A stretch of DNA of 32,000 nucleotides from Kineococcus radiotolerans SRS30216 = ATCC BAA-149 (GCF_000017305.1 NC_009664.2:1920001-1952000), one strand, 5' to 3'. Positions 10,290 to 32,000 are shown, counted from the stretch's first letter. Notes: generated by a model from the sequence alone, not told the origin. Made by a program: numbers and translations.

Positions 10290-10360
10290 GGGGCCCGGCG
10301 TCCGTACCGTGACCCGCGGTCGAACCCCCGGACGTGCCGGGACGTCCGGGAGGAGCACCG

Positions 10361-11791
10361 ATGGGCACGCGCACGGGCGGCGACGCGCCCGCCGTCGTCG
10401 TCGACCGGCGGGACGCCCCCGCGGACCCGCCGGGCGCGCACCGCGCGCGCGGCCCGGCCGCCGCGGCCGGGCTGGTGTCCACCGCGCTGTGCGCGGCCGT
10501 GGGCACCGGGCAGTTCCAGCGCGGCGACGCGCACGCCTACGACCTCGGCATCTTCAGCCAGTCCGCGGCGTCGTGGGCCGCGGGGCACCTGCCGACGTCG
10601 GGGGTGCTCGGTGGCAAGGCGCTGCTGGGAGACCACTTCTCCCCGCTGACCGCGGTGTTCGGCGCGGCCTGGGCCCTGTGGCCCGACCCGCGCGTCCTGA
10701 TCTGGCTGCAGGCGGTGCTGCTGGGCCTGGGCACCGCCCTGGTCACCCGCGCCGCCGTCCGCCACCTGCCCCCGGCGGGCGCCGCGGGGGTCGCCGCGGG
10801 GGCCCTGCTCGCCCACGGCACCCTGGCCGCGGCCCGCTTCGACGTGCACGAGGTGGCGCTGGCCGTCCCGTTCCTGGCCCTCACCGCGACGGCGCTGCTG
10901 GAGCACCGCCACCGCGCGGCGGCGCTGTGGGCGCTGCCGCTGCTGCTGGTGAAGGAGGACCTCAGCGCCACCGTGCTGGTGGTGGCCGCGGTCGTGTTCG
11001 CGCGCGGACGGCGCCGGCTGGGTCTGCTGCTGGCCGCCGCGGCCCTGGCCGGGCTGCTGCTGGCGGTGACGACGATGGCCCTGGTCTCCCCCGGGCACGG
11101 CCTGGCCCGGCTGGACAGCTTCGGCGGCGCCGCGGTGGCCGGGACGAGCGCCACCCGGCGCGTCCTGCTCGTCGTCGCCGTGGTCGTCGGCGGCGGGGTG
11201 CTGTGGGTGCGCTCGCCGGTGGCGCTGCTGGCGGTGCCGACGCTGGCGTGGCGGCTGGCCTCCGAGACACCCACCTACACCTCCAGCTCCCTGCACTACG
11301 GGGCCGTGCTCGCCCCCGTCGCCGGGGTCGCCCTGGTGGACGTGCTGCGGCGCCTGCCCCGCGGGCGCCCCGCGGCCCGCCTGGCGCCGTGGTGGTGCGC
11401 CCTGTGCTGCGCGGGCACGACGCTGGTGGTGCTGCCCCCGTCGTCGCTGCCGCCGGTGCTGTCCGCCGCGGGCTGGCGGACGGGCCCGCGGGTGGCGGAC
11501 CTGCGCTCGGCGGCCTCCGTCGTGCCGGCGGGCGCCGCCGTCGCCGCGGACAACTCCTCCGCCGCCTACCTGCTGGGGCCGGCCGGCGGGGACCACGACG
11601 TGCGCGGCTGGTCCGCGGACCAGCCGCTGCGGGACCTGCCGGAGTGGGTGGTGCTCAGCACCGACCGCAGCTCGCCGGGGACGCCGCTGGCGCGGTCGCG
11701 GGCCTGGCTGGCGCAGGTCCGGCAGGTGCCGGGGGTCTCCGTGCGCGAGGTCGGGGCGACGGCCGTGGTCCACCTGCCGCCGGTGCGCTGA
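10361..11791 (+). CDS. DUF2079-family polytopic membrane protein (putative GT-C-like glycosyltransferase), copy 1
   Basis: Track ORF 10334..11791. I prefer the ATG at 10361, which is preceded by GGGAGGAG. Motifs shared with copy 2: AYDLG(I/V)F.QS..SWA.G.LP, LG(D/E)HFSP(L/V)TA, WPDPR.L, DVHEVA.AVP, LPLLLVKED. There are many TM segments. Confidence 0.85.
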   Translation: MGTRTGGDAPAVVVDRRDAPADPPGAHRARGPAAAAGLVSTALCAAVGTGQFQRGDAHAYDLGIFSQSAASWAAGHLPTSGVLGGKALLGDHFSPLTAVFGAAWALWPDPRVLIWLQAVLLGLGTALVTRAAVRHLPPAGAAGVAAGALLAHGTLAAARFDVHEVALAVPFLALTATALLEHRHRAAALWALPLLLVKEDLSATVLVVAAVVFARGRRRLGLLLAAAALAGLLLAVTTMALVSPGHGLARLDSFGGAAVAGTSATRRVLLVVAVVVGGGVLWVRSPVALLAVPTLAWRLASETPTYTSSSLHYGAVLAPVAGVALVDVLRRLPRGRPAARLAPWWCALCCAGTTLVVLPPSSLPPVLSAAGWRTGPRVADLRSAASVVPAGAAVAADNSSAAYLLGPAGGDHDVRGWSADQPLRDLPEWVVLSTDRSSPGTPLARSRAWLAQVRQVPGVSVREVGATAVVHLPPVR

Positions 11792-14359: not shown

Positions 14360-14386
14360 GCCGTTCCATCGGACGGTGGGCCGCGC

Positions 14387-14424
14387 GCTGAAGGCGCCCC
14401 GCCGACCCGGAGCCGACCTTCAGC
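14387..14424. promoter_or_regulatory. 8-bp perfect inverted repeat in the divergent promoter region between the CWB2 protein and GGDEF-EAL genes
   Basis: GCTGAAGG (14387..14394) and CCTTCAGC (14417..14424) are separated by 22 nt, inside the 83-bp gap between the starts at 14359 (-) and 14443 (+). Confidence 0.35.
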
Positions 14425-20638: not shown

Positions 20639-20781
20639 CCGGGGCCTCCCCGACGTCGGGCGCCGCCGTGCGCGCCGCCGCGGTCCGGGCAGCGTAGTTC
20701 CCGCAGTTCCGGCCTCGGGCGCGGCGGACCGGGGAGCGCCGGGGCCGGTCGACCACGCAGGCGAACCCCACCGGCGTTGAG

Positions 20782-20834
20782 TGTTCAGTTCGAGCCGGTG
20801 TTCATTTTCTCTGAACGACCGCGGAGGATGAACG
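20782..20834. promoter_or_regulatory. 53-bp dyad-symmetric element with four GTTCA/TGAAC half-sites
   Basis: Half-sites: TGTTCAG (20782), TGTTCAT (20799), CTGAACG (20811), ATGAACG (20828). Same-orientation sites are 17 bp apart, and the whole array is symmetric about ~20808. It sits in the only AT-richer patch of the Smr / small-ORF divergent intergenic region. Confidence 0.45.
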
Positions 20835-20841
20835 GACCCGG

Positions 20842-21054
20842 GTGACACCTCCCGCTGCCGACGACCCCGCCCCCGCGGTCCTCGACGCCCTGCGCGCTCT
20901 GGGCCTGGACGTGGCCGTGGCCCGACGGCGCCCCCTGGCCCCCGCACCGCTGGTGTACGCCGACCTCGTCGCGGCCGGGTACCCCCGCTGCCTCGACGCC
21001 GCCGCCCGACTCAGGAGCGCCGATGATCTCCTTCGCCACCTCGACGGCTCCTGA
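20842..21054 (+). CDS. Small hypothetical protein (70 aa)
   Basis: Track ORF 20842..21054. By my count roughly 85 percent of third codon positions are G/C, which fits real coding in this genome. I recognise no domain, and the GTG start has only a distant GGAGG. Confidence 0.4.
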   Translation: MTPPAADDPAPAVLDALRALGLDVAVARRRPLAPAPLVYADLVAAGYPRCLDAAARLRSADDLLRHLDGS

Positions 21055-21102
21055 TCTGCACGTCGTGTCGGGTGAGGGTCCGCGGATCACCGGGCCGGGC
21101 GT

Positions 21103-22563
21103 TCAGCAGCCCGTCACCCACACCGGCGCCGGCAGCGGCGGGTTCCCCGCCGCCTCCGGCAGCCACACCGGTCCCCGGCACGGCATCCGCAGCGCCACGG
21201 CCTGCCCGCGCCGCACCACCTCCACGTCGGGGCGCGCGCCGAGCTCCGCGACCAGCGCGAGCTTGCCCTCGCGGGTGGCGCTGGTCCCGTCGATGCGGAG
21301 GTCGACGACGACCCAGTCCGCGTCGACGGCCCCGACGTTGCTGAACACCCGCACGGTGTGGCGGGTCACGAAGTAGGGGCCGGCGCCGTTGTCGGCGGCG
21401 ACGAGCGCGCCGGCGGGCAGGTCCCGCGACACCGCGAGCAGGTCGCGGGTGGCGGCGGAGGGGCGCCAGGTGTCGAGGCTGAACGGGTTCGCGACGTAGT
21501 TCGCAGTCAGGTAGGTGACGGTGCTCGCGGCCAGGCTCAGCACCGCCACCACGGCCGTGGCCGCCGCCCGCGCTCGGCGCAGGCGGCGCAGGACGTCGAC
21601 GAGGGCGACGAACACGACGGGCATCAGGACCCCGTCGTAGTGGAAGCGCGGGGACCAGTAGCTGTCGTAGGGCGAGATGAGCCGCCACGCCAGCGTCGGC
21701 ACGACCACGAACGCCACCGGTGAGCGCACCCACACCAGCCCGCCGGTGACGAGCAGCAGCACGACGAGCTCCAGGCGCGGTGCCCCGTCGGCGGACCAGG
21801 TGAGGGGCGCGGCCGCGGCGGCCTCCCCGCTGAAGCGGATCGCGAACAGCGGGACCTCGTGGTCGGGGTTGCGCCAGGCGATGACGGCGAACGCGGCGAC
21901 GGTCCCGGCGGCGGCGAGCAGCACGGTGGCCACGGCGACGAGCCGTTCGCGGCCCCGGCCGAGGAGGAACGCGACGAGGGCGACCGCGCAGATCGTCGGG
22001 CCCTGGTCCTCCTTCACCAGCAGCAGCGGCAGCGACCACGCGCAGGCCGCGGTGAGGCGCCGCTCCACCAGGGCCGCGCAGGCCAGGGCGATGAGGGGGA
22101 CGGCAAAGGCGACCTCGTGGACGTCGAGGCGCGCGACGTTCACCACCCCGTAGGACCCCGCGGCGAGGACGGCGACGACAGCGGCCGAGGGGGGACCGAG
22201 GTGGCGGCGGGCCAGGGCGTGGACGACGGCGACCCCCAGCGCCAGCGGCACCGCCTGCACGACGATGAGCGCGCGCGGGTCCGGCCACACCCACCACGCC
22301 GCGCCCCACAGGGCGGTGACGGGGCTGAAGTGCTCCCCCAGCAGCGGCAGCCCGCGGATCGCGCTGTACGGCAGCCGTCCCGACGCCCACGACTGCGCCG
22401 ACTGCGCGAACACCCCGAGGTCGTAGGCCCCCGAGCGCCCCACGTTCCACCGGGCCAGGCCGAGCCACGCGAACCAGGCGAACGACAGCAGCCCGGCGAC
22501 GGCGCTCCCGGTCCGGGGCCGGTGGGTGGCGGGGGCGGCGCGGTCCAGGACGTGCGTGCTCAT
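21103..22563 (-). CDS. DUF2079-family polytopic membrane protein (putative GT-C-like glycosyltransferase), copy 2
   Basis: Track ORF 21103..22563. It has the same motif set as copy 1 (AYDLGVFAQSAQSWASGRLP, LGEHFSPVTA, WPDPRALI, DVHEVAFAVP, LPLLLVKED) and is in inverted orientation relative to it. Confidence 0.85.
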   Translation of the reverse strand: MSTHVLDRAAPATHRPRTGSAVAGLLSFAWFAWLGLARWNVGRSGAYDLGVFAQSAQSWASGRLPYSAIRGLPLLGEHFSPVTALWGAAWWVWPDPRALIVVQAVPLALGVAVVHALARRHLGPPSAAVVAVLAAGSYGVVNVARLDVHEVAFAVPLIALACAALVERRLTAACAWSLPLLLVKEDQGPTICAVALVAFLLGRGRERLVAVATVLLAAAGTVAAFAVIAWRNPDHEVPLFAIRFSGEAAAAAPLTWSADGAPRLELVVLLLVTGGLVWVRSPVAFVVVPTLAWRLISPYDSYWSPRFHYDGVLMPVVFVALVDVLRRLRRARAAATAVVAVLSLAASTVTYLTANYVANPFSLDTWRPSAATRDLLAVSRDLPAGALVAADNGAGPYFVTRHTVRVFSNVGAVDADWVVVDLRIDGTSATREGKLALVAELGARPDVEVVRRGQAVALRMPCRGPVWLPEAAGNPPLPAPVWVTGC

Positions 22564-22639
22564 GGTGGGCCGAACCTACCCGCGGCGGGCGTGGCGCTCC
22601 CCCGGCCCGCGCCCGGCCCGCCGTTACCGTGACGGCATC

Positions 22640-24067
22640 GTGTTCACGACCCGACGGCCGCAGCGGCCGACCACCGCCCCCGTCCGGCCGCTCCCCCGGG
22701 CGCTCACCGCGGTCACCGCCCTGGTGGTCCTCGCGGTGGGCGTGTTCGTCTTCACCTGGCGCCTGGGGGTGGAGAGCTCCGTCGGGGACGAGCTCGTCTA
22801 CCGCGACGCGGGCGCCCAGTACGTCGACGGGGTGTTCACCTACAACCTGGAGCACCCGCCGCTGGCGAAGTACCTCGTCGGCCTGGGTCACCTCGCCTTC
22901 GGCGGCACCCTCGTCGCCGACCGCCTGCCCTCCGCGCTCCTCGGGATCCTCACCGGCGGGGTCCTGTTCGCGATCACCCGCCGGATCGCCGGCCCGCGGG
23001 CCGGGCTGCTCGCGGCGCTGCTCTGGTACGTCCTGCCCCTGCACCCCGGCGTCGTCGAGGCCCACGTCGGGCGGCAGGCGACCCTGGAGATGCCGCTGCT
23101 GTTCTTCGTCGCCTGCGCGCTGTGGGCGGCGCAGGCCCTGCTGGACCGCGCCACGTGGTGGCGGTGGGCGTGGCTGGGGGTCGCGGTGGGGGCGGCGACC
23201 GCAACGAAGCTGACCGGTGCGAGCGTCGCCGTCGTCACCCTGGCCCTGCTGTGGCGGCACCGCGCGACACCCGGGCGGGCGCTGGGCGGGGCGGTGCTCG
23301 CGGGGTCCGTCGCCGTCGCGGTGTTCCTGGCCACCTACCTGCCGTTCGGCGCTGAAGGGCCCGACGCGGTGCGGACGGTCGTGCAGTGGCAGCTCGACCA
23401 CGCCGGGCGCGGCGCCGTGCAGCACGTCGCCGGCGTCAACCACGCGTTCCCGCCGTGGTGGTCGGCGTGGTGGTTCCAGGCGCAGTACCTGACGTGGGCG
23501 GGGGTCGTGGCGCTGTGGGGGCTGGCCCTGCTGGGCGTCGTCGCGGCCCGGCGGGCCGGGCTCGTGGTGGCGACCGCCCTGGCCGGGTTCACCCTCGCCC
23601 TCGTCGCCTCCCCGCTGAAGCTGCCGCAGTACCACGACGTGTGGATGCCGCCGCTGGTCGTGGGGGCCGCCGTCGCCCTGCACCGCCTCGTCACCGGATC
23701 GTCCGGATCCCGTGTCGTGGCCACTGCGGCGGGCCTGGTGCTCCTGGCCCTCGCCGGACAGCAGGGACTGAACGTCGCCACCACCGCTCCCGCGGACTAC
23801 CGGCTGGTGGGAGCCGAGCTGCGGCGACTGCCGGCGGGGTCGGTCGTGGTGTCGTGGGCGGACACCGGGGCGCTGCAGCGCTACGCCCCCGATCTCGTCT
23901 ACATCGGGGGGACGGTTCCGGACTGCACGGCCGCGGCGCTGGTCGTGGACACCACGATCGCGGACCGCATCCCGGGGGCGGACGCGGCGGAGTGGGCGGC
24001 GCAGTGCGGGGCGTCCCCGAGGGGGTTCCAGCGGATGCAGGTCCTGATCCCGTCAAGGGCGTCCTGA
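22640..24067 (+). CDS. GT-C glycosyltransferase of the PMT_2 / GT39-GT83 (dolichyl-phosphate-mannose / ArnT-like) type
   Basis: Track ORF 22526..24067. The first-loop acidic motif GDELVYRDAG...NLEHPPLAKYL follows TM1, and there are more than 10 TM segments. The start is uncertain. I list the GTG at 22640 because it leaves a 76-bp divergent promoter gap. The in-frame ATG at 22562 would abut the start of the divergent gene. Confidence 0.85.
   Translation: MFTTRRPQRPTTAPVRPLPRALTAVTALVVLAVGVFVFTWRLGVESSVGDELVYRDAGAQYVDGVFTYNLEHPPLAKYLVGLGHLAFGGTLVADRLPSALLGILTGGVLFAITRRIAGPRAGLLAALLWYVLPLHPGVVEAHVGRQATLEMPLLFFVACALWAAQALLDRATWWRWAWLGVAVGAATATKLTGASVAVVTLALLWRHRATPGRALGGAVLAGSVAVAVFLATYLPFGAEGPDAVRTVVQWQLDHAGRGAVQHVAGVNHAFPPWWSAWWFQAQYLTWAGVVALWGLALLGVVAARRAGLVVATALAGFTLALVASPLKLPQYHDVWMPPLVVGAAVALHRLVTGSSGSRVVATAAGLVLLALAGQQGLNVATTAPADYRLVGAELRRLPAGSVVVSWADTGALQRYAPDLVYIGGTVPDCTAAALVVDTTIADRIPGADAAEWAAQCGASPRGFQRMQVLIPSRAS
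23219..23955 (+). repeat. Intact copy of the segment that recurs in degraded form at 29980..30497
   Basis: Manual alignment. The blocks 23221..23289, 23354..23410 and 23547..23955 align to 29982..30497. About nine in ten positions are identical by eye in the longest block. Confidence 0.8.
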
Positions 24068-24091
24068 CCCGCTGGACCGTGCAACCGGCCG

Positions 24092-25291
24092 GTGTCGGTC
24101 CGGGCTGACAGGGTGCGGATCATGCACCTCCTCGACGCTCTCAGCGCGGTCGGTCGTGTCCTGCTGGTGACGTCCGTGCTCGTGAGCGCGCAGGCCGTCC
24201 TGCTCGTGTCCGTCGAGCGGTGGTTGATCGGCTCCGGTCCCCGGGCGGCGGCGAAGGGACCGGGGGACGGTCGTGCGTCCGGGCGGCCAACGCGCGGGTT
24301 CCGCGCGAGGGGATCGCGTTGCCTCGTCATCGCCGGCGTGGTGCTGTTCCAGGCGATGGTGGTGGGCTCGGCCCTCGACGCCGCTTCCACGACGCGAACC
24401 CCGGGACGGATCACCTTGGTGATCACTGCAGTGGTGCTGACCGCGGTTCCCACGACTCACGCGGCCCTGACCTGGAGGGCGCTGATCAACGCCGATCGTT
24501 GGTGGGACCGCACGGTGCCCGTGACCGCGACCCCCCACGACCGGCGGGCCCGACGCCACCTGATGGAGGCGACCATCCCCCACCTCAACCACGGTGTCTT
24601 CGTGTGCGGCGCGGTCCTGCCGGGCGTGGCACAGTGCTTCGTGTCGTACCTGCCGTCGATCACGGCAACAGTGCCGGACACGGATCCCGTGCTCGAGATC
24701 ATGGTCCTCCTCATCGCGGTGATCTCAGTGAGTGGCGTCGCGTGGAAGGTCGTCCACGTCCTCAACCCACTGGCCCCGTTCACCGGCCTGGTGCTGCGGG
24801 ACTGTGGGAAGCCGTGGAGCGACTGGCAGGGCGCGCGCCTGCGTCCTCTCGACCTGCGCAGTTCCGCCGCGGCGTTGTGGCGGTGGGAACGCCGGGAACT
24901 CCGCCGGGTTCCCCCGTCGCTGCGGGATGGGCACGCAGAAGCCTTCCACCAAGCGTGCGAGGCACTGCGCCTGCTGGACGACAGGCGTCACACCGACGCG
25001 GGAGCCGCCGTGACCGCACGCACCCTGTGCGGGCAGGTGGTCATCGCCACCCTCGCCACCGACCACCGGTTGGCCACTCGCGTCGCGGCGAGGGCCGTCC
25101 CGTCCCGGCTGCGCACCACGCCGCCCCACCCACCGGTTCGTTCTCGCTGGGCGGGTGCCGTCGACGTGGTGTTGACCCGAGCCGTCACCGTGCTGACGTT
25201 CGTCTCCTGCCTCATCACCGTGCTCGCCCTCGTCCTGGCCCTCGTGGGCGGGGCGGGTTTCGCCGACGCGTGGAAGGACTTCCGGCTGTGA
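24092..25291 (+). CDS. Hypothetical polytopic membrane protein (about 6 TM) with a ~130-aa soluble insert; no recognisable domain
   Basis: Track ORF 24092..25291. GC3 is clearly elevated in this frame and not in the overlapping ORFs. TM candidates: VGRVLLVTSVLVSAQAVLLVSV, CLVIAGVVLFQAMVVGSAL, ITLVITAVVLTAV, GVFVCGAVLPGVAQCFVSYL, VLEIMVLLIAVISVSGVAW, VTVLTFVSCLITVLALVLALVGGAGF. The start is uncertain (GTG 24092, GTG 24113 or ATG 24122). Confidence 0.65.
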   Translation: MSVRADRVRIMHLLDALSAVGRVLLVTSVLVSAQAVLLVSVERWLIGSGPRAAAKGPGDGRASGRPTRGFRARGSRCLVIAGVVLFQAMVVGSALDAASTTRTPGRITLVITAVVLTAVPTTHAALTWRALINADRWWDRTVPVTATPHDRRARRHLMEATIPHLNHGVFVCGAVLPGVAQCFVSYLPSITATVPDTDPVLEIMVLLIAVISVSGVAWKVVHVLNPLAPFTGLVLRDCGKPWSDWQGARLRPLDLRSSAAALWRWERRELRRVPPSLRDGHAEAFHQACEALRLLDDRRHTDAGAAVTARTLCGQVVIATLATDHRLATRVAARAVPSRLRTTPPHPPVRSRWAGAVDVVLTRAVTVLTFVSCLITVLALVLALVGGAGFADAWKDFRL

Positions 25292-25296
25292 GTTCG

Positions 25297-27066
25297 TCAG
25301 GTGGTGCGGCGGGGGCCGCCGGTGGGGACGTAGAAGAACCCGGCCCCCCGCCGGACCTCGCGTCCGGGGGCCAGCACGCCTTCCGCTTCCAGGTCCTTCA
25401 GCACCCGCTGCAGGTTGGTGGGGTGAGCGCCCACGATGCCGGCCAGTTCACTGGAACTGATGCGACCGCGGTGCTCGGCCCACGACCGGGCGATGGCTGA
25501 GCGGCTGGGACGACGGCGCTGCGGGGCGCCGAGACGCTCGTCGCGGTCGGCGAGGACGGCGAGCGCGGCGGGGGTGATGGTCCAGGCGGGAGGCTCGTTC
25601 GCCGGCGACCCCGCGACACCGGCGGTGAGGGGGACTCCCGCGACTTGGACGTCCTCCAGCCGGTGCAGGACGTCCTCCGCTTCCGCGCTGGACCGCTGGA
25701 TGAGCGGAGCGGCGACCCGTGCGTCGATCCACCAGTGGCTGACGAGGTGCTGGACGACGAGCAGCGCGTCGAGGTCGTTCGCGGTCCGCGCGGGGTCCAG
25801 TTCGTGGAGGAACGCCATCCACCCCTCGTCCAGGCGGGTGCCGATGAGGACGGCGCGGACGAGCGGCCCGGGGACTTCCTCGATGGAGGGCGCGGGGTGG
25901 CCGAGGCGGATCATGTCGCCGACCATCCGGTCGACGCCGATGCCTTCGAGCTCGGCCACCCGGAGCCGGGCCAGCAGGTCCGCCAGCGCCCGGTTCCGTG
26001 GCTGGGAGGGGTGGGTGATGATGTTTCTGCTGGTGATCCCGCCGATGAACCCCCCGGGTGAGGTGACGACGAGCCGGGAACCGATGTGCTCGACGTGCAC
26101 CGGGTCGACGGTCGACCAGTCGCGGTGGGCGACGCCGTTGACGAGCGCCTCACGGGCAGCGCGGGGCGGCAGGGAGCGGACCTGCCGGTTGACGAGCCCC
26201 CGGGGAAGGTGGCGGACCGGGTTGGACGCCTCGATGGCGCGGTCCACCTCGTAGAGCTCCTCGAGGAGTCCTCGTCCCGCTTCCCGGATGCGTTGCAGGC
26301 TGTCCCCACCGGCGACCTCGCGCCGGACGTAGTCGATGCCGGGGACGTCCCGGCCGACGAAGGCGATGACACCGGCGTTGGTGAGGGTGCCCGCCGGCGT
26401 GACCACGTTCAGTCGCCGCAGCAGGTCGCTGTCGGACGCGGCCGCGAGGTCCAGGTTCTTCTCCTCCCCCGCCGCGGTCAGGAAGTCCCGCGCCCGTTGC
26501 AGCGCCGTGCTGCGGGCGGCGTCGAGCGCGAGCCCGGAGTCCTGCGCGGACCAGTCCCAGCCGCTGCGACGACGGCGCTGCTCCTCCCAGGTCGTCGCGT
26601 CGACCTCGACGCAACTGTCGGCGACGCGGTGGTGGTACTTGTGGTCGTACATGACCGGGTGGACCGCTTCGGGGCTGCGGACGAGGAGCAGCCGGACACC
26701 CCGGCACAGCACGGGCGTGACGTCCGCGGTGAGACGGCGGTCGGTCAGGTCGTAGATCTTCCGACGCAGCCACTGGGCGTCGAGCTCGGTGCCGATGAGC
26801 GTCCCGTCGTCGGCGACCCCGACGACGAGGACGCCACCTCCCGGGGTGTTGGCCATGCAGGCCGCTTCCCCGGCCAGGACGCGGGCCGCCCGGTCGTTCT
26901 CGGTGGCACCGGGGAGGATGGTCGGGCCCTTGCGCCGGCCGGCCTCCTCCTTGAGGTCGACGTGGAGGGACTCCAGACCACGGACGGGGCCGGTGGCGGA
27001 GTCCAGGACCATCAGGACGCGGCGCACCTCCTCGCCGACGGGGTCCGGACCGAAGGAAAGTGTCAC
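25297..27066 (-). CDS. COG2865-type protein: AlbA_2/Schlafen-like (divergent AAA) N-domain, HATPase_c_4-like middle domain, C-terminal winged-helix HTH
   Basis: Part of track ORF 25297..27246. The stretch upstream of ~27066 contains an AT-rich palindrome and is not coding-like. Candidate starts are the GTG at 27066 or the ATG at 27012. N-domain: ESLHVDLKEE ... GGVLVVGVADDGTLIG. Middle: REALVNGVAHRDW ... HIGSRLVVTSPGG ... SQPRNRALADLLARL...E..G.G..RM. C-terminus: ELAGIVGAHPTNLQRVLKDLEAEGVL. Confidence 0.8.
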   Translation of the reverse strand: MTLSFGPDPVGEEVRRVLMVLDSATGPVRGLESLHVDLKEEAGRRKGPTILPGATENDRAARVLAGEAACMANTPGGGVLVVGVADDGTLIGTELDAQWLRRKIYDLTDRRLTADVTPVLCRGVRLLLVRSPEAVHPVMYDHKYHHRVADSCVEVDATTWEEQRRRRSGWDWSAQDSGLALDAARSTALQRARDFLTAAGEEKNLDLAAASDSDLLRRLNVVTPAGTLTNAGVIAFVGRDVPGIDYVRREVAGGDSLQRIREAGRGLLEELYEVDRAIEASNPVRHLPRGLVNRQVRSLPPRAAREALVNGVAHRDWSTVDPVHVEHIGSRLVVTSPGGFIGGITSRNIITHPSQPRNRALADLLARLRVAELEGIGVDRMVGDMIRLGHPAPSIEEVPGPLVRAVLIGTRLDEGWMAFLHELDPARTANDLDALLVVQHLVSHWWIDARVAAPLIQRSSAEAEDVLHRLEDVQVAGVPLTAGVAGSPANEPPAWTITPAALAVLADRDERLGAPQRRRPSRSAIARSWAEHRGRISSSELAGIVGAHPTNLQRVLKDLEAEGVLAPGREVRRGAGFFYVPTGGPRRTT

Positions 27067-27089
27067 GGGTGACCCCCAAGGCCAGTCGC

Positions 27090-27115
27090 CATACTTTATC
27101 GAAGAAAAAAGTATG
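27090..27115. promoter_or_regulatory. AT-rich perfect inverted repeat CATACTTT-N10-AAAGTATG in the COG2865 / S8-protease divergent region
   Basis: Read directly from the sequence. On the minus strand it overlaps a TAAAGT -10-like hexamer about 30 nt upstream of the GTG at 27066. It is the most AT-rich 30 bp in this part of the window. Confidence 0.45.
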
Positions 27116-27362
27116 ACAGGGGCCGCGGCGGGCCACCACCCCGCACTTTCGCCGCCCCGCCCGCACCCCGCACCGGGGGCTGACCAAGCGCCCGGGGCGC
27201 CTTCGCCTGCGCCTGCTGCCCGGGACGCGGCTGGGTGAGCGATCACCCGATCGGGTCATCAACGGCGAACCGGCGCCTCCCGACACCTCGGGCGGAGGAG
27301 GTCCGCGCCAGCAGCCCGGGTCGATCCCACCGCCCTGGGCCGCCGAACGAGGAGATGACCCC

Positions 27363-29903
27363 ATGAGCGCCTTCCGGGCCACCGGCGACGTCCGCGGAAC
27401 CGCGAGCCGCCCCCGCCGCGCAGCGTTGCGCATCGCGCTCGCCACCACGATCACCGCCGCCACCCTGGGCGGGGTGACGGTCCCCGCCCAGGCGACCGGG
27501 ACGACGGGTGACCTGGCGGAACTGCCCTCCGCGGTGCGTTCGGACCTGTCCCCGCGCGAGGTCTCCGCGTTCGGCAGCGCCACCGCCGGCTCGGGGCACG
27601 ACGTGATCGTCGTGGTCCCCGCCGGCGGCTCGTACCGCACCACCACCGTCTCCAGCGGCTCGGAGTCCGACGCGGTCCGTGCCGCGTCGATCCTCGTGAA
27701 CCAGCCCTCCGTGGTAGCCGCCGGTCCCGACGTGGAGGTCTTCCCCGCCGTCCTGCCCCCGTCCGCGGGCGCCGACCGCCGCGGCGAGCAGTGGGACTAC
27801 CGGCGCACGGGCGCCGGCGTCCACGACGCCTGGCTGGCCGACAAGATCGGCGACGTCACCGTCGGCGTGATCGACACCGGCCTCGCCCCGCACGCCGACT
27901 TCGCCCCCGGCACCGTCGTGGGCGGCTACGACTTCACCGCGGAGAAGGACTACACCTCCGACGGCAACGGCCACGGCACCCACGTCGCCGGGACGATCGC
28001 CGCCACCACCGGCAACACCGGCGTGGACGGGTTCGCGCCGGGCGTGAAGCTGCGGATCTACCGCGTCTTCCCCGACTCCGGGGCCGGTTCGACCCAGGAC
28101 ATCATCGACGCGATCAAGCGCGCCGCCGACGAGGGCGTGGACGTCGTCAACCTGAGCCTCGTCATGGGCCCGGCCTCCAACACCCTCACCGCCGGCGTGG
28201 TCCAGACCGCGGTCGACTACGCGCGCGCCAAGGGGGTCGTGGTCGTCGCGGCCGCCGGCAACTACGGGGCGCCCTGCGGCATCGGCCAGAACCCCGACAC
28301 CTGCGGGAACCCCGTCATGCTCCCGGCGTCCCTGCCGGGCGTGATCGGCGTCAGTTCCATCGACCCCGCCGCCGCCCTCTCCCCGTTCTCCGAGCACGGC
28401 AACCAGATCGACGTCGCGGCCCCCGGGTCGCAGATCGTCTCCACCTACATCGGTTCCACCACCGCCTACGCCACGATGCAGGGCACCTCCATGGCCGCCC
28501 CGCACGTCGCGGCCGTGGCCGCCACCGTCAAGGCCGTCAGCAAGGGCTTCACCCCCGACCAGGTCGAGGCGATCCTGGAGTCCTCGGCCGAGGACCTCGG
28601 GACCGCCGGCCGCGACGACCGGTTCGGCGCGGGCCTGGTGCGTTCCGACACCGCCGTCACCGCGGCGCGCGCCGCCCTCCCCCGGGTGAACGCCGCGCCC
28701 ACCGCGTCGGCCGTCACGCAGGACGTGCTCAACGACCGGTCCGTCACCGTCGACGTCCTGGCCCACGCCACCGACCCCGACGGGAACCCGCTGACGCTCG
28801 CAGGCGTGAGCGCCCCTGCGCACGGCACCGCGACCGTCGTGGACGGGAAGGTCCAGTACCGGGCCATGGCGGGCTACACGGGCTCCGACGCGTTCACCTA
28901 CACGGTGACCGACGGTTCCCTCACCGCCACGGGCACCGTGACCCTCACCGTCGCCGCCCCGCCGGTCGTGGTCCAGCCGCTCCCGGCCCCGCCGGTGGTC
29001 GTCGCCCCGCCCGCGGCGCCGCCCGTGGCGGCACCGCCCGCCCCGGCTCCCCTGGCGCCGGCTCCTCCCGTCGTGACGCCCCCCGTCGCGGTCCCGCCGG
29101 CCCCGACCCCGCCGGTGGTCGTTCCCACCCCGGCCCCGAGCCCGGTGAAGCCGGCCACCCCGAGTCCGGGCCGGCCCGTCGACCTCGGCGGCGGCGCCAA
29201 GCAGTACGCCGGCGCCGACGGGCGGCCCACCACCGTCCACGGCGCGATCGGGGTGACCTACTCCGCCAAGGGCGGTGACACCGGCGTCCTCGGCGCCCCC
29301 CGCGGGAAGGAGTTCGCCGTGAAGGCGTCCTCCGGGACCGACGGGCGCGTCCAGCGGTTCGCCGCCAACGACGGCCTCGTCTACTGGTCCAGCAGCACCG
29401 GCGCCCACGAGGTGCACGGCGCGATCTCGCGCCGCTTCGGCCAGCTCGGCTGGGAGGGTTCCGGGCTGGGCTTCCCCACCACCGACGAGTTCCCGATCCG
29501 CGGCGGCGCCGCCAGCCACTTCCAGGGCGGCTCCATCTACTGGAGCGCCGCCACCGGCGCGCAGGTCGTGAAGGGCGCCATCCGCGACCGCTGGGCCGCC
29601 ATGGGCTGGGAGACCTCCCACCTCGGTCTCCCCACCAGGGAGGAGTTCCCCATCCGCAGCGCCGACGGCACCGTCGGGCGCGTCCAGGCCTTCACCGGCG
29701 GCCTCGTCTACTGGAGCCCCGCCACCGGCGCGCAGCCCGTCTCCGGCTCGTTCCAGGGGTACTACGCCGGCCAAGGCTGGGAACGCGGGAACCTCGGCTA
29801 CCCCGTCTCCGCGGAACTGCCCACGGCCACCGGGGTGGTGCAGCGGTTCCAGGGCGGGACGCTGACGTGGGACCGGGCGAGCGGGCGGGTGATACGCCAT
29901 TGA
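27363..29903 (+). CDS. Secreted, wall-anchored subtilisin-like S8 peptidase: signal peptide, propeptide, S8 catalytic domain, cadherin/Ig-like domain, Pro-rich linker, four LGFP-type repeats
   Basis: Track ORF 27363..29903, with GAGGAG 8 nt upstream. Signal SRPRRAALRIALATTITAATLGGVTVPAQA. Triad motifs VGVIDTGL, HGTHVAGTIAA, GTSMAAPHVAAVAA. Ig-like segment ATDPDGNPLTL...DAFTYTVTDG. The linker (~28940..29165) is (P-A/P-V)n. Four repeats have the form (H/K/S)GAI...(Y/F/W)...G...G.LG(F/L/Y/A)P...E......G..Q.F.GG.(I/V/L)YWS..TGA..V. Confidence 0.9.
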   Translation: MSAFRATGDVRGTASRPRRAALRIALATTITAATLGGVTVPAQATGTTGDLAELPSAVRSDLSPREVSAFGSATAGSGHDVIVVVPAGGSYRTTTVSSGSESDAVRAASILVNQPSVVAAGPDVEVFPAVLPPSAGADRRGEQWDYRRTGAGVHDAWLADKIGDVTVGVIDTGLAPHADFAPGTVVGGYDFTAEKDYTSDGNGHGTHVAGTIAATTGNTGVDGFAPGVKLRIYRVFPDSGAGSTQDIIDAIKRAADEGVDVVNLSLVMGPASNTLTAGVVQTAVDYARAKGVVVVAAAGNYGAPCGIGQNPDTCGNPVMLPASLPGVIGVSSIDPAAALSPFSEHGNQIDVAAPGSQIVSTYIGSTTAYATMQGTSMAAPHVAAVAATVKAVSKGFTPDQVEAILESSAEDLGTAGRDDRFGAGLVRSDTAVTAARAALPRVNAAPTASAVTQDVLNDRSVTVDVLAHATDPDGNPLTLAGVSAPAHGTATVVDGKVQYRAMAGYTGSDAFTYTVTDGSLTATGTVTLTVAAPPVVVQPLPAPPVVVAPPAAPPVAAPPAPAPLAPAPPVVTPPVAVPPAPTPPVVVPTPAPSPVKPATPSPGRPVDLGGGAKQYAGADGRPTTVHGAIGVTYSAKGGDTGVLGAPRGKEFAVKASSGTDGRVQRFAANDGLVYWSSSTGAHEVHGAISRRFGQLGWEGSGLGFPTTDEFPIRGGAASHFQGGSIYWSAATGAQVVKGAIRDRWAAMGWETSHLGLPTREEFPIRSADGTVGRVQAFTGGLVYWSPATGAQPVSGSFQGYYAGQGWERGNLGYPVSAELPTATGVVQRFQGGTLTWDRASGRVIRH

Positions 29904-29979
29904 GTCAATGGACCACAAAACCCTCGTCGGACACGCTCTGGACCCTCTGTTCGCGTATGGCCAGCGATGCCTTGAGAGA

Positions 29980-30497
29980 GTGAGCGTCGCCGTCATTGCA
30001 TTGACCCTGCTTTGGCGGCACCGCGCTACGGCTGGGCGGAAGGCCCGCTGAGGTGCGGATGGTCGTGCAGTAGCAGCTCGAACACGCCGGGCCCAGCGGG
30101 CCGGGCTCGTGGTGGCAACCGCCCTAGCCGGGTTCACCCTCGCCCTCGTCGCCTCCCCGCTGAAGCTGCCTCACTACCACGACGTATGGGTGCCGCCGCT
30201 AATTATGGGGGCCGCCGCCGTCGCCCTGCACCGCCTCGTCACCGGATCGCGCGGGTCCCGCGTCGTCGCTGTCACGGCGGGCCTGGTGCTCCTGGCCCTC
30301 GCCGGGCAGCAGGGGCTGAACGTCGCCACCACCGCTCCCGCGGATTGCCGGCTGGTGGGAGTCGAGCTGCGGCGGCTGCCGGTGGGGTCTCGTGGTGTCG
30401 TGGGCGGACACTGAGCGCCGCAGCGCTACGCCCCCGGCCTTGTCTACGTCGGGGGGCGGTTCCAGACTGCACGGCCGCGGCGCTGGTGGTGGACACT
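29980..30497 (+). pseudogene. Decayed fragment of a GT39/PMT_2 glycosyltransferase gene, homologous to 23219..23955
   Basis: It aligns to the intact gene with two internal gaps of roughly 65 and 135 bp, a 3-bp insertion, and 2-bp and 1-bp deletions near 30388 and 30411. There is a premature TGA at 30049..30051, and a TGG-to-TAG change at 30071..30073. It lacks the 5-prime two-thirds of the gene. Its tail after 30497 (..TRHCHPWCNSKVKRFH*) is unrelated to the intact gene's tail. Confidence 0.8.
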
Positions 30498-30710
30498 CGG
30501 CACTGCCACCCATGGTGCAATAGCAAGGTGAAGCGCTTCCACTGAGCCTTAGCGACAGAATTGGCCTACGCCGACCCCTGATTTTGAAAGCCGCCGCCGT
30601 CACGTCTTAGCAATATGGCTGTATATTTACATACCATCATTATCAGCACACTGCCCACGGCGGACTGCCGCCCCTCGTATTTCACCGCCTACACCGATCA
30701 ATACGCCAGA

Positions 30711-30771
30711 GGCCCCGACCCTCCAAGGAGAGCCGGGGCCTCGAACTCACGTCACCCGGTCAATAGACCGG
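30711..30771 (-). terminator. Two hairpins immediately downstream of the surface-protein gene
   Basis: On the minus strand after the stop at 30785: CCGGTC-tatt-GACCGG (30756..30771), then GGCCCCG-N16-CGGGGCC (30711..30740). Confidence 0.45.
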
Positions 30772-30784
30772 CCCTGACGATTGC

Positions 30785-32000
30785 TCAGCTAGCAGCAGGA
30801 GGCGTGATCGCCGCAACCTGGCCGCTACCATCGACATCCGTCACGGTGCTGTTGGCAGTGCCGGGCAGGGCGGTCGCCGCCGCAAGGGCCCCCGTGCCAG
30901 CAGCCGTCGCCGTCGTGAAGACGATGGTGTTGCCATTCACCGCGGCCGTGAATGCACCGGTGTCACCCGTAAAGGTGTTGGGACCGGTAATGGCTTCGAT
31001 CTCCGCTTCGCTGACCGCGCCTGCTCCCGTGATACCGGCCGCCAGGGTCGGAGCCGAGGAGAAGGTAAGCGTCAACTGGTCGCCGACATTGTTCCCGAAG
31101 CCCGCGGTTCCACCAGCAGTGATGGCGCCGGCAGTGATGAACGGAGCCACCGCGTAGCTCAAGGTCGCACTCGGCACGAATTCTGCGCTGGCGTCCCGGT
31201 AGGTGATGTACAGCGTGTCACCCGGGTTGAAGCCCGTCGTAGTGATCGTCAGCCCACCAGTGGCATCTTCGGTACCGGTACCGATGGCAACGCCGGCGGC
31301 GTTGTAGACGGTCACGATGTCACCATCCGCCTGCCCTGCGCCCGAACCGAGAGCCACAACTTCGGTGCTCGCATTGGCGTTAACCGCCGCGGTGGTCAGT
31401 ACAGTCGGGAGGGTTGTACCGACAACGGTGCGGTCCGTGCTGCGGGCCACGTTCCAGTCGCCGACCGCGTTACCAACGGTGGACTCGACGACGGCAACAA
31501 CAGCAGCGTCGGTGTTAATGACGCCGTTACCGCGCACGACCTCGGCCACCGGCGCGCCAGTGATGTCGACCGTGAGCACCGTGCTCTGAGCACCGCTGAC
31601 CGTGAACGTGGCGTTGGCGCCATTGGTCAGGGTCGCTTCGTCCCCATCCGTCTCGATGAGCCGGATAGTGTCCCCAGCCGCGACCGTGATCGCGCTGTTG
31701 AAGTTGAACACGAGGTTTTCGTCCGCGTCGAGAACGTTGTCAGACGTGGTCTCGTTGCTGCTGAGGCTGGCCGCGGTGCTGTAGGGGCTCGCCGGGGCAG
31801 CCACGGCCGTGGTGCTGGTGTCGATGCGGCCGCTGACCGCGGATTCTTCGCCATTCACAGTCTGGGTGACGAAGAGGTCATAGGCGGTGGAAGCCGTCAG
31901 ACCGCTGGCCGTGATCTGGAAGCCGGCCGTAGTGGCATCCTGGTCGGCCACCGTCTGACCGCGCTGCAGGTCGGTCGCGCGATCAAAGGCGTTGTTGTTG
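30785..32000 (-). CDS. C-terminal 400+ residues of a large Thr/Ala/Gly/Val-rich, Cys-free surface protein (adhesin or S-layer-like, bacterial Ig-like modules); N-terminus outside the window
   Basis: Track ORF 30785..31951, but the frame stays open to base 32000 (..NNNAFDRATDLQRGQTVADQDATT..). It has repeated beta-strand-rich modules, e.g. GDTIRLIETDGDEATLTNGANATFTVSG, GDIVTVYNAAGVAIGTGTEDATGGLTITTTGFNPGDTLYITY and GDQLTLTFSS. The composition is acidic. It uses many A/T-ending codons, unlike the rest of the window. No LPXTG, CWB2 or LGFP anchor is visible in this part. Confidence 0.75.
   Translation of the reverse strand, partial: NNNAFDRATDLQRGQTVADQDATTAGFQITASGLTASTAYDLFVTQTVNGEESAVSGRIDTSTTAVAAPASPYSTAASLSSNETTSDNVLDADENLVFNFNSAITVAAGDTIRLIETDGDEATLTNGANATFTVSGAQSTVLTVDITGAPVAEVVRGNGVINTDAAVVAVVESTVGNAVGDWNVARSTDRTVVGTTLPTVLTTAAVNANASTEVVALGSGAGQADGDIVTVYNAAGVAIGTGTEDATGGLTITTTGFNPGDTLYITYRDASAEFVPSATLSYAVAPFITAGAITAGGTAGFGNNVGDQLTLTFSSAPTLAAGITGAGAVSEAEIEAITGPNTFTGDTGAFTAAVNGNTIVFTTATAAGTGALAAATALPGTANSTVTDVDGSGQVAAITPPAAS

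Follow-up and report, generated by a model that had tools for sequence, protein, structure and literature searches.

Phages and ICEs that integrate at the 3′ end of a gene and bring along a substitute for that end leave the target gene whole, its original end being pushed beyond the insert. C-terminal displacement that leaves "orphan" 3′ fragments is also described for Rhs, CDI and T6SS effector loci (Jackson et al. 2009; Poole et al. 2011; Kirchberger et al. 2017, PMC5361080), in which, by the account in PMC5361080, polymorphic toxin domains paired with immunity genes make up the 3′ ends and displacement serves to diversify function. When one-sided recombination was assayed by conjugation in E. 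coli, most recombinants had 109–950 bp of the homologous segment duplicated beside the insert, and the duplications arose by single crossover of a circularised molecule (PMC3240628). Homology-facilitated illegitimate recombination (de Vries & Wackernagel 2002; Prudhomme et al. 2002; Meier & Wackernagel 2003, as cited in PMC5361080 and PMC3240628) in its classical form usually deletes recipient DNA and shows 3–10 bp of microhomology at the junction (PMC3240628).

The locus compared here with these systems lies in a 32-kb stretch of the Kineococcus radiotolerans SRS30216 chromosome (hereafter the window). A damaged second copy of part of a GT-C glycosyltransferase (GT) gene is found there, separated from the intact gene by three inserted genes (Table 1). 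The original prediction had read this layout as an insertion scar, and offered three origins for it: an element with its own replacement 3′ end, one-sided homology-facilitated recombination, or decay of a tandem paralog.

Table 1. Features of the SRS30216 window around the intact glycosyltransferase gene and its damaged copy
Feature	Coordinates	Strand	Evidence and remarks
DUF2079 membrane protein gene	21103..22563	-	Pfam DUF2079, E 9e-41; head-to-head with intact GT; ancestral left neighbour
Intact GT-C glycosyltransferase gene, PMT_2 domain	22526..24067	+	ABS01852.1; Pfam PMT_2; GC3 0.96; identical to P0018
Copy A, intact-gene segment repeated downstream	23221..23952	+	Pairwise alignment
Conserved C-terminal tail of intact GT	23953..24067	+	TIADRIPGAD..W..CG..R; no counterpart in remnant
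Inserted gene 1, orphan hypothetical, 389 aa, probably membrane-bound	24122..25291	+	GC3 0.87
Inserted gene 2, SLFN_AlbA_2 + HATPase_c_4 (+HTH)	25297..27066	-	Pfam; gene calls in L003, L019; GC3 0.88
Inserted gene 3, secreted S8 peptidase, ABS01849.1	27363..29903	+	Pfam; GC3 0.95
Spacer, 78 bp, 58% GC, unique sequence	29904..29981	.	S8 stop codon to left junction 29981/29982
Copy B, GT pseudogene fragment (remnant)	29982..30496	+	Alignment; both junctions in independent assemblies
Unique AT-richer DNA, 48-66% GC	30497..30784	.	Remnant to stop codon of convergent surface-protein gene; holds the "20-codon tail"
CW_binding_2 surface protein gene, 3′ part, ABS01847.1	30785..32000	-	P0022 100% identical over 404 aa; Pfam CW_binding_2 x3

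Copy B is a shortened repeat of copy A (515 bp vs 732 bp). Pairwise BLASTN, a repeat search and local alignment gave three blocks that are colinear between the copies: 23221–23278 with 29982–30039 (81% identity, E 4e-11), 23358–23414 with 30042–30098 (86%, E 6.5e-15), and the main block, 23545–23952 with 30090–30496 (89.3% over 411 columns, E 2e-154). Copy B has suffered two internal deletions of ~77 bp and ~139 bp, the boundary of the second being ambiguous by 9 bp, and five small indels (+3, +3/−3, −2, −1 and −1 in the local alignment). A TGA stands at 30049 in the frame of the first block, and a TGG has become an in-frame TAG at 30071–30073. The GT reading frame is never open across the whole of copy B, which also lacks ~695 bp of the gene's 5′ end and 115 bp of its 3′ end. 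Thirty GC-to-AT substitutions against 14 AT-to-GC ones, counted in the alignment to copy A, mark it as degenerate and AT-drifting. The description of an obvious but damaged copy thus holds, with significant, colinear similarity and with the gaps, small indels and both stops found. Homology ends at 23952/30496 rather than at 23955/30497, and the remainder of the intact gene past the breakpoint is 115 bp including the stop codon, not 112 bp. Copy B combines colinear similarity and disabling lesions with absence from a close relative that has a functional copy (the K. radiotolerans strain L019), and 29982–30496 is now largely established as a non-functional relic of the neighbouring GT-C (PMT_2) glycosyltransferase gene.

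An assembly artefact as the origin of copy B was ruled out, as both junctions are reproduced exactly in independent SRS30216 assemblies. Logan unitigs from other SRS30216 read sets (L003–L007) match window positions 23728–30156 at 100%, a span in which the left junction, the two deletions and the two stops all lie, and further unitigs (L021, L023) match 30276–32000 at 100%, including the right junction. The unitigs are interrupted only within exact repeats common to copies A and B.

The product of the intact gene, for which GenBank places the start at 22640 (vs 22526 for the ORF as mapped here), scores 64.1 bits against PF13231 (PMT_2; gathering cut-off 26.1) and is 52–68% identical to its Kineococcus orthologues. 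D88 and E89, within GDELVYRD, are invariant in a 10-sequence alignment and constitute the acidic DE motif that GT-C enzymes have in the first extracytoplasmic loop; a catalytic role may be assigned to them by sequence. A bona fide protein O-mannosyltransferase (Pmt, GT39 sensu stricto) is not supported by the NCBIfam equivalog NF058602, against which the product scores 25.4 bits (cut-off 800). The earlier label "GT39" was looser than these tests, which support a PMT_2 domain and not that equivalog. Past the breakpoint, the tail of the intact protein aligns in all Kineococcus orthologues, with T477, A479, R481, A485, D486, W490, C494 and R503 invariant, and DNA similarity of the gene to L002, L010 and L012 extends over the tail. 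This C-terminal tail is the ancestral one, and the remnant's own tail would have been lost in a later deletion. The two copies had been said to have unrelated tails; the remnant indeed lacks the native one, and the AT-richer stretch behind it is no more than the DNA downstream of the surface-protein gene, left there by a deletion. A single weak terminator-like hairpin (30659–30672) lies in this flank.

In other Kineococcus species the gene order is DUF2079(−), GT(+), one or more CW_binding_2 (CWB2) surface genes(−), GGDEF-EAL(+). The divergent DUF2079/GT pair is kept, with similar spacing, in L012–L017; convergent CW_binding_2 genes follow GT in L008, L009, L012, L013 and L014, and in L002 and L010 a toxin-antitoxin pair lies between GT and CW_binding_2. 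To the right of the remnant in SRS30216 stand a CWB2 gene (1059 aa, running past the window to about 33964), which ancestrally adjoins GT on the right, and behind it a GGDEF-EAL gene, both orthologous to genes downstream of GT in the other species. The former is 70.5%, 58% and 54% identical to the GGDEF-proximal CWB2 orthologues of L011, L008 and L002, respectively; the latter is 65–66% identical to its counterparts in L002, L008 and L011 and 54% to those in L012 and L014. The remnant therefore sits exactly in the expected place of the GT 3′ end, while the intact gene retains its head-to-head DUF2079 partner. What breaks the genus-wide order is a 6,761-bp block, 23221–29981, composed of a replacement GT 3′ portion with the conserved tail, the orphan gene, the SLFN_AlbA_2 gene, the S8-LGFP gene and the 78-bp spacer. 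Genus-level synteny accordingly fits the proposed scar of an insertion that kept its target functional and stranded an old 3′ part. An "empty-site" genome was not found in the K. radiotolerans lineage; the GT genes of the nearest cargo-free loci are just 54–68% identical, and these loci are rearranged.

One GT match within ±10 kb was counted in each of nine other species' loci (Kineococcus or related), and likewise in L019, the collection being scanned by peptide patterns, which may overlook a decayed copy; these counts speak against the decay of a tandem paralog as the origin. A more elaborate version is that K. radiotolerans and Kineococcus sp. SYSU DK002 (L011) had an ancestor with one GT beside DUF2079 and another downstream of S8, homogenised by gene conversion, the second having decayed and lost its 5′ end. 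Its attraction is that in SYSU DK002, the closest species locus, a full-length GT directly follows an S8-LGFP gene in the same orientation, mirroring the order from S8 to the remnant. We regard this history as very unlikely, given that two GT copies occur in no genome examined, that conversion would be needed to hold the copies at 89% identity while the species differ by 32% at the protein level, and that SYSU DK002 itself has a single GT and a rearranged DUF2079. The resemblance of its gene order to the S8-to-remnant arrangement is left unexplained by the mechanism favoured below.

Of the three inserted genes, the orphan gene has no match in Pfam, NCBIfam or PADLOC and has homologues in K. 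radiotolerans only. The SLFN_AlbA_2 gene is called as 589 aa, its longest ORF extending to 27246. The S8 peptidase contains Ig/cadherin-like domains, a Pro-rich linker and four LGFP repeats, and has homologues near the GT locus in L011–L014. Against a GC3 of 0.95–0.99 in the backbone genes, the "visibly lower G+C" claimed for the cargo is true of the orphan and SLFN genes and not of the S8 gene, and the steepest drops in GC fall in the spacer and in the DNA past 30497. The cargo is thus not all foreign-looking, as far as composition and neighbourhood indicate: S8-LGFP genes belong to the GT neighbourhood in other species as well.

Could the block be a mobile element? Pfam scans of the main predicted genes detected no integrase or transposase across the window, which also has no tRNA, and the 4.4 kb beyond it, surveyed in part, showed nothing resembling a recombinase, only the CWB2 and GGDEF-EAL genes lying to the right; nor was a relaxase found in the window or seen in those 4.4 kb. 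The insert boundaries have no terminal inverted repeats or short target duplication, and the inverted repeats that were found are weak (70–88% complementary), none of them at the boundaries. The window scans thus had the same outcome as the earlier remark that no integrase, transposase or short terminal repeats were visible. An insertion sequence or composite transposon was rejected, with neither transposase nor boundary inverted repeats, and the first of the proposed origins, an element with its own replacement 3′ end, is not supported in a form that carries a recombinase, integrase, transposase and tRNA all being missing. The layout alone would suit a site-specific integrative element or transposon that targets GT, with an intact gene whose 3′ part was replaced, cargo, and a displaced old fragment, and in this the locus resembles phage or ICE integration. 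It differs in that the repeat is long and internal (732 bp at 81–89% identity, with no identical att core at its ends) and that the displaced copy lacks the native gene end. Moreover, three strains share the cargo as a fixed, colinear set, and the orphan gene is found nowhere else. Such an element is largely refuted and, as an explanation, extremely improbable.

We consider it modestly probable that the locus arose by single-crossover, one-sided homologous integration of a 5′-truncated GT fragment with the three genes, followed by decay. Among the three origins first put forward, one-sided homologous recombination is the best fit, and a circularised fragment that integrates by single crossover yields an identical product. 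Donor DNA from the same species lineage would have carried a 5′-truncated GT fragment and then the three genes (a donor with GT already followed by them is postulated), and would have recombined with the resident GT via homology at one side only. This could have occurred by a single (Campbell-type) crossover of a circularised fragment or, equivalently, by one-ended homologous invasion completed by an illegitimate join at 29981/29982. Either route would have rebuilt one complete gene beside DUF2079 and left a promoterless, 5′-truncated duplicate downstream of the insert, and neither would require a recombinase of its own. The duplicate would later have decayed through GC-to-AT substitutions, stop codons and deletions, one of which would have taken its last 115 bp and perhaps a GT-proximal CWB2 gene too; in another strain, the remnant would have gone with the replacement of the surface-protein cassette that follows S8.

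As expected of a single crossover, a direct duplication brackets the insert, with a complete first copy and a second copy cut short where the fragment ended. The E. coli products share this arrangement around a non-homologous insert, formed without a dedicated recombinase, with a duplication of 109–950 bp there and 732 to about 850 bp here (PMC3240628). The SRS30216 event differs in being natural, old and actinobacterial, with a 5.9-kb insert of three genes, and in that its second copy is decayed and does not continue into the native 3′ end, its last 115 bp being missing although the neighbouring CWB2 and GGDEF-EAL genes are ancestral. Since a simple single-crossover product is expected to keep the native tail, an extra deletion must be assumed. 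With homology-facilitated illegitimate recombination, as outlined in the citing papers, the locus has in common the import of DNA without homology to the recipient through one homologous anchor and one illegitimate junction; unlike in the classical process, recipient DNA was duplicated rather than deleted, and no clear microhomology is present at 29981/29982, where at most a few bases could be shared. An original microhomology may have been erased, the remnant having diverged by about 6.5%. As in the displacement described for Rhs, CDI and T6SS loci, an incoming module gives a conserved gene a new 3′ end and the old 3′ part persists downstream without a promoter; here, however, the old and new parts represent a single allele type, still 89% identical despite the decay, the conserved tail has been retained, and there is no toxin/immunity logic.

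The same topology would follow exactly from a tandem duplication of 23221–29981 in an ancestor that had GT, the three genes and CWB2, the second copy beginning at the same point of a direct repeat and then being mostly deleted, from the GT tail through S8, so that its first ~735 bp are left as the remnant. Copies nearly identical at their origin, and the several deletions that the remnant has clearly suffered, agree with this. Nevertheless we judge it unlikely, because it calls for three events (a clean earlier cargo insertion, the duplication itself, and loss of ~6 kb up to a point within the second GT fragment) where one event plus a small deletion would do, and because no strain has a longer second copy; the position of the remnant at the ancestral GT–CWB2 junction, though compatible with it, is put to no use.

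How old is the remnant, and whose copy is it? By outgroup comparison it branches just outside the three K. radiotolerans alleles, with 23 fixed changes on its own branch, two on the stem of the intact alleles and 11 ambiguous (A or T in the remnant in most), so at the time of their separation the copies were nearly identical, differing by no more than species-level divergence. Of an "old or foreign copy", then, old agrees with the synteny and foreign is not right. Changes of ~5% at codon positions 1 and 2, together with the two large deletions, suggest that the remnant is about as old as the divergence of SRS30216 and L019, or older. The codon-position counts of the remnant branch (6/10/7) and the intact alleles (9/3/16) are weakly different, so they fix the date of its loss of function poorly.

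Strain L019 bears on the later history of the locus. Its three cargo genes are 97.3% identical to those of SRS30216 and its GT is intact, and no remnant occurs in the 4.2 kb downstream of S8. Similarity between the strains stops at the S8 stop codon; everything to the right differs, and the remnant falls in this strain-specific part. The CWB2 products are just 48% identical while the flanking genes are 97–99% identical, so that cassette exchange at the locus is real. All this would suit a history in which the cargo was cleanly inserted in the species ancestor and SRS30216 later imported its CWB2 cassette from a close cargo-free relative, on a fragment that started within the donor's GT and became attached directly behind S8 by an illegitimate join; the pattern of substitutions along the remnant branch also permits an initial phase under selection. 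We hold this to be decidedly unlikely. It takes one event more than the favoured model, the age suggested for the remnant runs against it, and the SRS30216 CWB2 gene, by its identity to that of SYSU DK002, looks vertically inherited, so that L019, whose cassette is the outlier, appears to be the replaced state. Under the single-crossover reading, we infer that L019 lost the remnant when its surface-gene cassette was replaced from the S8 stop codon onwards.

Cassettes are also switched by recombination at other S-layer/CWB2 cell-wall protein loci, for example the slpA/cwp cassette of Clostridioides difficile. The K. radiotolerans locus is alike in having a CW_binding_2 gene that differs strongly between strains, beside glycosylation genes and between conserved flanks. 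Unlike slpA/cwp it belongs to an actinobacterium, and the likeness, seen in sequence comparison, concerns the neighbourhood and not the origin of the remnant. The GT locus of K. radiotolerans SRS30216 is most likely an ordinary recombination scar, a known outcome and not a new kind of element.

The reading frames of the window, whose G+C content is about 77%, were called from GC3 and Pfam matches. Three products correspond to GenBank proteins of Kineococcus radiotolerans SRS30216: the PMT_2 glycosyltransferase (GT), identical to ABS01852.1, the S8 peptidase (ABS01849.1) and the CW_binding_2 (CWB2) surface protein (ABS01847.1). The C-terminus of the surface protein was matched by an exhaustive protein search, a word-indexed search having given none.

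Features around the GT gene and its decayed copy (window coordinates)
Feature	Coordinates	Strand	Basis
DUF2079	21103–22563	−	GC3 + Pfam
PMT_2 GT-C glycosyltransferase	22526–24067	+	GC3 + Pfam
Orphan hypothetical gene	24122–25291	+	GC3
SLFN_AlbA_2 + HATPase_c_4	25297–27066	−	GC3 + Pfam
S8 peptidase with LGFP repeats	27363–29903	+	GC3 + Pfam
GT remnant (copy B)	29982–30496	+	
CW_binding_2 surface protein	30785 to beyond window end	−	GC3 + Pfam

The segment 23221–23952 inside the intact GT gene (copy A) matches the remnant in three colinear blocks with 81%, 86% and 89.3% identity, the main block with an E value of 2e-154, which bears out the original prediction of a damaged second copy. Copy B has two deletions (~77 and ~139 bp), five small indels, a TGA at 30049 that is in frame with the first block and a TGG-to-TAG change at 30071–30073; the predicted gaps, indels and stop codons are thus all found. 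The homology does end abruptly, although at 23952/30496 rather than at 23955/30497. The differences between the copies comprise 30 GC-to-AT against 14 AT-to-GC changes, the excess that a lack of constraint would produce in a very GC-rich genome. Unitigs from many other read sets of SRS30216 are 100% identical to 23728–30156 and 30276–32000, and break only within exact repeats common to both copies. The two junctions and the lesions are therefore all genuine, which rules out an assembly artefact or a strain-mixture chimera. The longest open reading frame over the remnant (30012–30545, 177 aa) lies mostly outside the GT frame, and an exact look-up of its product in the protein index found no entry; an exact look-up of P0018, a protein identical to the intact GT, likewise gave no match. 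From the GenBank numbering of the S8 (ABS01849) and CWB2 (ABS01847) genes, a single annotated CDS, ABS01848, is implied for 29982–30603. Any CDS annotated over the remnant interval is probably a spurious call on pseudogene DNA, and 29982–30545 should be handled in annotation as a pseudogene fragment, not as coding sequence.

Which of the two 3′ ends is the ancestral one? The stretch of the intact gene beyond 23952 codes for TIADRIPGADAAEWAAQCG...R, a tail which can be aligned in all Kineococcus orthologues with several residues invariant, and which is still detectable in the DNA of three loci of other species (L002, L010 and L012). Since the tail is conserved in the orthologues, the ancestral end is that of copy A, and the last 115 bp are gone from copy B, so that the question left by the original prediction is settled in favour of the intact copy. 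The AT-richer 20-codon tail of the remnant, previously read as an unrelated gene end, consists of 3′ flanking DNA of the convergent surface-protein gene. The GT gene of a third K. radiotolerans-like strain (L020, ENA metagenome ERZ933222, PRJEB13142) is 96.6% identical until 58 bp before its stop and there passes into AT-rich DNA (L020 1570–2090, equivalent to window 24009/24010), in which the apparent start of an IS-type transposase with a helix-turn-helix N-terminus was read by eye. Here the 3′ end of GT has a second, independent breakpoint, a hint that breaks may recur at this end.

A second K. radiotolerans strain (L019, GCA_014191015.1), identical to Logan contig L001, is colinear with window 21061–29898 at 97.3%, covering DUF2079, GT, the orphan gene, SLFN and S8, with gene-by-gene identities of 97–99.4%. 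SLFN-S8 is also present in a third, metagenomic strain (L022); the three genes between the copies therefore belong to the species backbone. The similarity between SRS30216 and L019 stops at the S8 stop codon, beyond which the two carry unrelated DNA (29899–32000+ of the window and the unitigs L021/L023 that extend it, versus 17251–21428 of L019). SRS30216 has here the GT remnant and a 1059-aa CWB2 protein; the corresponding L019 DNA encodes an EcsC-like protein and another CWB2 protein, which has IPT-type repeats and is only 48% identical to that of SRS30216. No GT remnant is found downstream of S8 in L019. The remnant sits within a strain-variable segment, and the difference between the strains suggests that cassettes of a surface (S-layer-like) protein gene have been switched. 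The S8 peptidase varies in length between strains (846 versus 842 aa), and its Pro/Ala/Val-rich linker (28918–29147) consists of degenerate 15/30-nt repeats; Logan contig L001 of the close relative stops ~280 bp upstream of the linker, equivalent to window 28635. Between the two strains, an 861-aa surface protein (11834–14419, minus strand; domains NHL, He_PIG, fn3 and three CW_binding_2) shows only 71% identity, against 98–99% for its neighbours, and its gene is the second hypervariable surface gene of the window. A second DUF2079 paralog (10313–11791, plus strand) adjoins this NHL/CWB2 gene, with 67% nucleotide similarity to the GT-side DUF2079, so GT-C-like membrane proteins and cell-wall-anchored proteins are clustered in the window. 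Between the Smr gene and DUF2079, L019 lacks a 356-bp segment (20705–21060) that holds a 70-codon open reading frame (20842–21054, plus strand) and is unique among the sequences compared.

In other species, DUF2079(−) and GT(+) stand head-to-head with a spacing similar to that in the window (L012–L017), and within 40–260 bp GT is followed by convergent CW_binding_2 genes, with a GGDEF-EAL gene beyond them (L008, L009, L012, L013 and L014). The order GT, CW_binding_2, GGDEF-EAL also occurs with a RES-type toxin pair interposed (L002 and L010). Rightward through the unitigs L021 and L023, the remnant of SRS30216 itself is followed by the 1059-aa CWB2 gene and a membrane GGDEF-EAL gene, in that order. 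When these genes are compared with those downstream of GT in other species, GGDEF-EAL is 65–66% identical over its full length to L002 and L008–L011 and 54% to L012 and L014, and CWB2 is 70.5% identical to L011 (N-terminal 624 residues), 58% to L008 and 54% to L002. From this synteny we conclude that the ancestral order was DUF2079, GT, CWB2, GGDEF-EAL. Copy A retains the left partner, copy B lies exactly at the right-hand junction, and the 6,761 bp of 23221–29981 are an insertion relative to that order. The strain with the replaced cassette then looks like L019, not SRS30216, and this replacement would be why L019 has no remnant. There are two CWB2 genes per locus in other species versus one in SRS30216; the deletion that took the remnant's tail may also have taken the GT-proximal CWB2 gene. 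A remnant imported along with the CWB2 cassette would agree with its strain-specific location, but it requires one additional event and is at odds with the CWB2 orthology pattern.

CWB2 genes across Kineococcus have a G+C content of 65–70% against 73–77% for the genomes, with a GC3 of 0.77 in SRS30216 and 0.84–0.90 in other species. The low G+C here is therefore partly a trait of the gene family and no proof of recent transfer. A horizontally acquired island past 30497 that truncated the remnant is weakened accordingly: this DNA comprises the 3′ flank of CWB2 and the part encoding its C-terminus, the CWB2 orthologues in other Kineococcus share the reduced G+C (68–70%, GC3 0.84–0.90), and the N-terminal 624 residues are 70.5% identical to L011. 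The lower G+C ascribed to the genes between the copies is seen in two of them, orphan (GC3 0.87) and SLFN (GC3 0.88). S8, with a GC3 of 0.95, does not share it, and S8-LGFP homologues are usual neighbours of the GT locus in other species; the insert is thus a mosaic and not a uniform foreign island. The orphan gene is restricted to K. radiotolerans, and PADLOC and NCBIfam gave no informative name for it or for the SLFN gene. As originally noted, neither integrase nor transposase is visible in the 32-kb window (Pfam scans), and the tRNA scan found no tRNA there. An integrase- or transposase-borne element is excluded as far as the data reach, and the suggestion of an integrative element is unsupported.

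For the origin of the remnant, three intact alleles (SRS30216, L019, L020) and the remnant were compared with two outgroup species over 509 aligned sites. While 445 sites are invariant and 28 are polymorphic among the intact alleles, 23 are fixed on the remnant branch and only two on the stem of the intact alleles; the remaining 11 are ambiguous, 10 of them at third positions, with the remnant having A or T in most. Given 23 versus two fixed changes, the remnant and the intact lineage parted shortly before the sampled K. radiotolerans strains diverged from one another, which rules out a remote source and leaves the idea of a foreign copy unsupported. Changes at the three codon positions number 6/10/7 on the remnant branch versus 9/3/16 among the intact alleles, suggesting that constraint was relaxed over most of that branch; with such small numbers, we do not claim that the remnant was dead from birth. 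There is no signal of gene conversion between the copies, the sites unique to each intact allele being balanced (10 versus 11); this count used only the remnant's 3′ block, as the MAFFT alignment misplaced the 5′ blocks. The closest locus of another species (L011 1–4024, Kineococcus sp. SYSU DK002) has S8-LGFP(+) directly before a full-length GT(+), which parallels the S8–remnant order of the window, and its DUF2079(−) is convergent with GT rather than divergent. Ancient GT paralogs kept similar by gene conversion are suggested by this locus only, but none of the genomes examined has two GT copies, and decay of a tandem paralog is accordingly unsupported.

We propose that the incoming DNA would have carried GT from some position x to the gene end, followed by non-homologous genes, and would have recombined through the GT homology alone, either in a single crossover of a circularised molecule or by an invasion from one end, with copying and a final illegitimate join. 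One event would then yield a complete gene, the insert and a 5′-truncated duplicate. The model has three weak points: the missing tail of the remnant demands an additional deletion, a donor with GT already upstream of the three inserted genes has to be postulated, and no insert-free genome of the K. radiotolerans lineage was found. The JGI metagenome scan turned up no close GT relatives, 30497–32000 had no match in the plasmid collection, and the two spacers had none by BLAST against all loci. Tandem duplication of 23221–29981 followed by a ~6 kb deletion agrees with the topology, but requires more events. K. radiotolerans is an extremely radiation-resistant bacterium, and on a very improbable break-repair reading a double-strand break in GT would have been mended when one end invaded a diverged template, copied 6.8 kb and was sealed by end joining. 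It is very improbable, in our estimation, that the locus reflects recombinase-free capture of gene blocks by break repair, or recurrent C-terminal displacement remodelling a glycosyltransferase/surface-protein locus as in Rhs/T6SS loci. The layout does resemble Rhs/T6SS C-terminal displacement (PMC5361080), but the old and new ends in the window belong to the same allele type. In conjugation assays of one-sided recombination in E. coli, a duplicated homologous segment of 109–950 bp beside the insert was the predominant outcome, whereas strict homology-facilitated illegitimate recombination usually involves loss of recipient DNA and 3–10 bp microhomology (PMC3240628), neither of which is observed here.

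The remnant is a real, well-delimited pseudogene fragment marking an old insertion with duplication, and the core of the original prediction, an insertion scar with the target gene kept and an old copy stranded, is right. It adds one more case to a known type of recombination scar, is unsurprising to a specialist and reveals no new mobile element, enzyme or mechanism; its value lies in annotation and in studies of locus evolution. It provides a clean natural case of how a gene block can enter a bacterial chromosome via one-sided homology, leaving the target intact and a datable fragment stranded, within a plastic cell-envelope locus of GT-C enzymes, CWB2 surface proteins and an S8-LGFP peptidase in which strains differ sharply.
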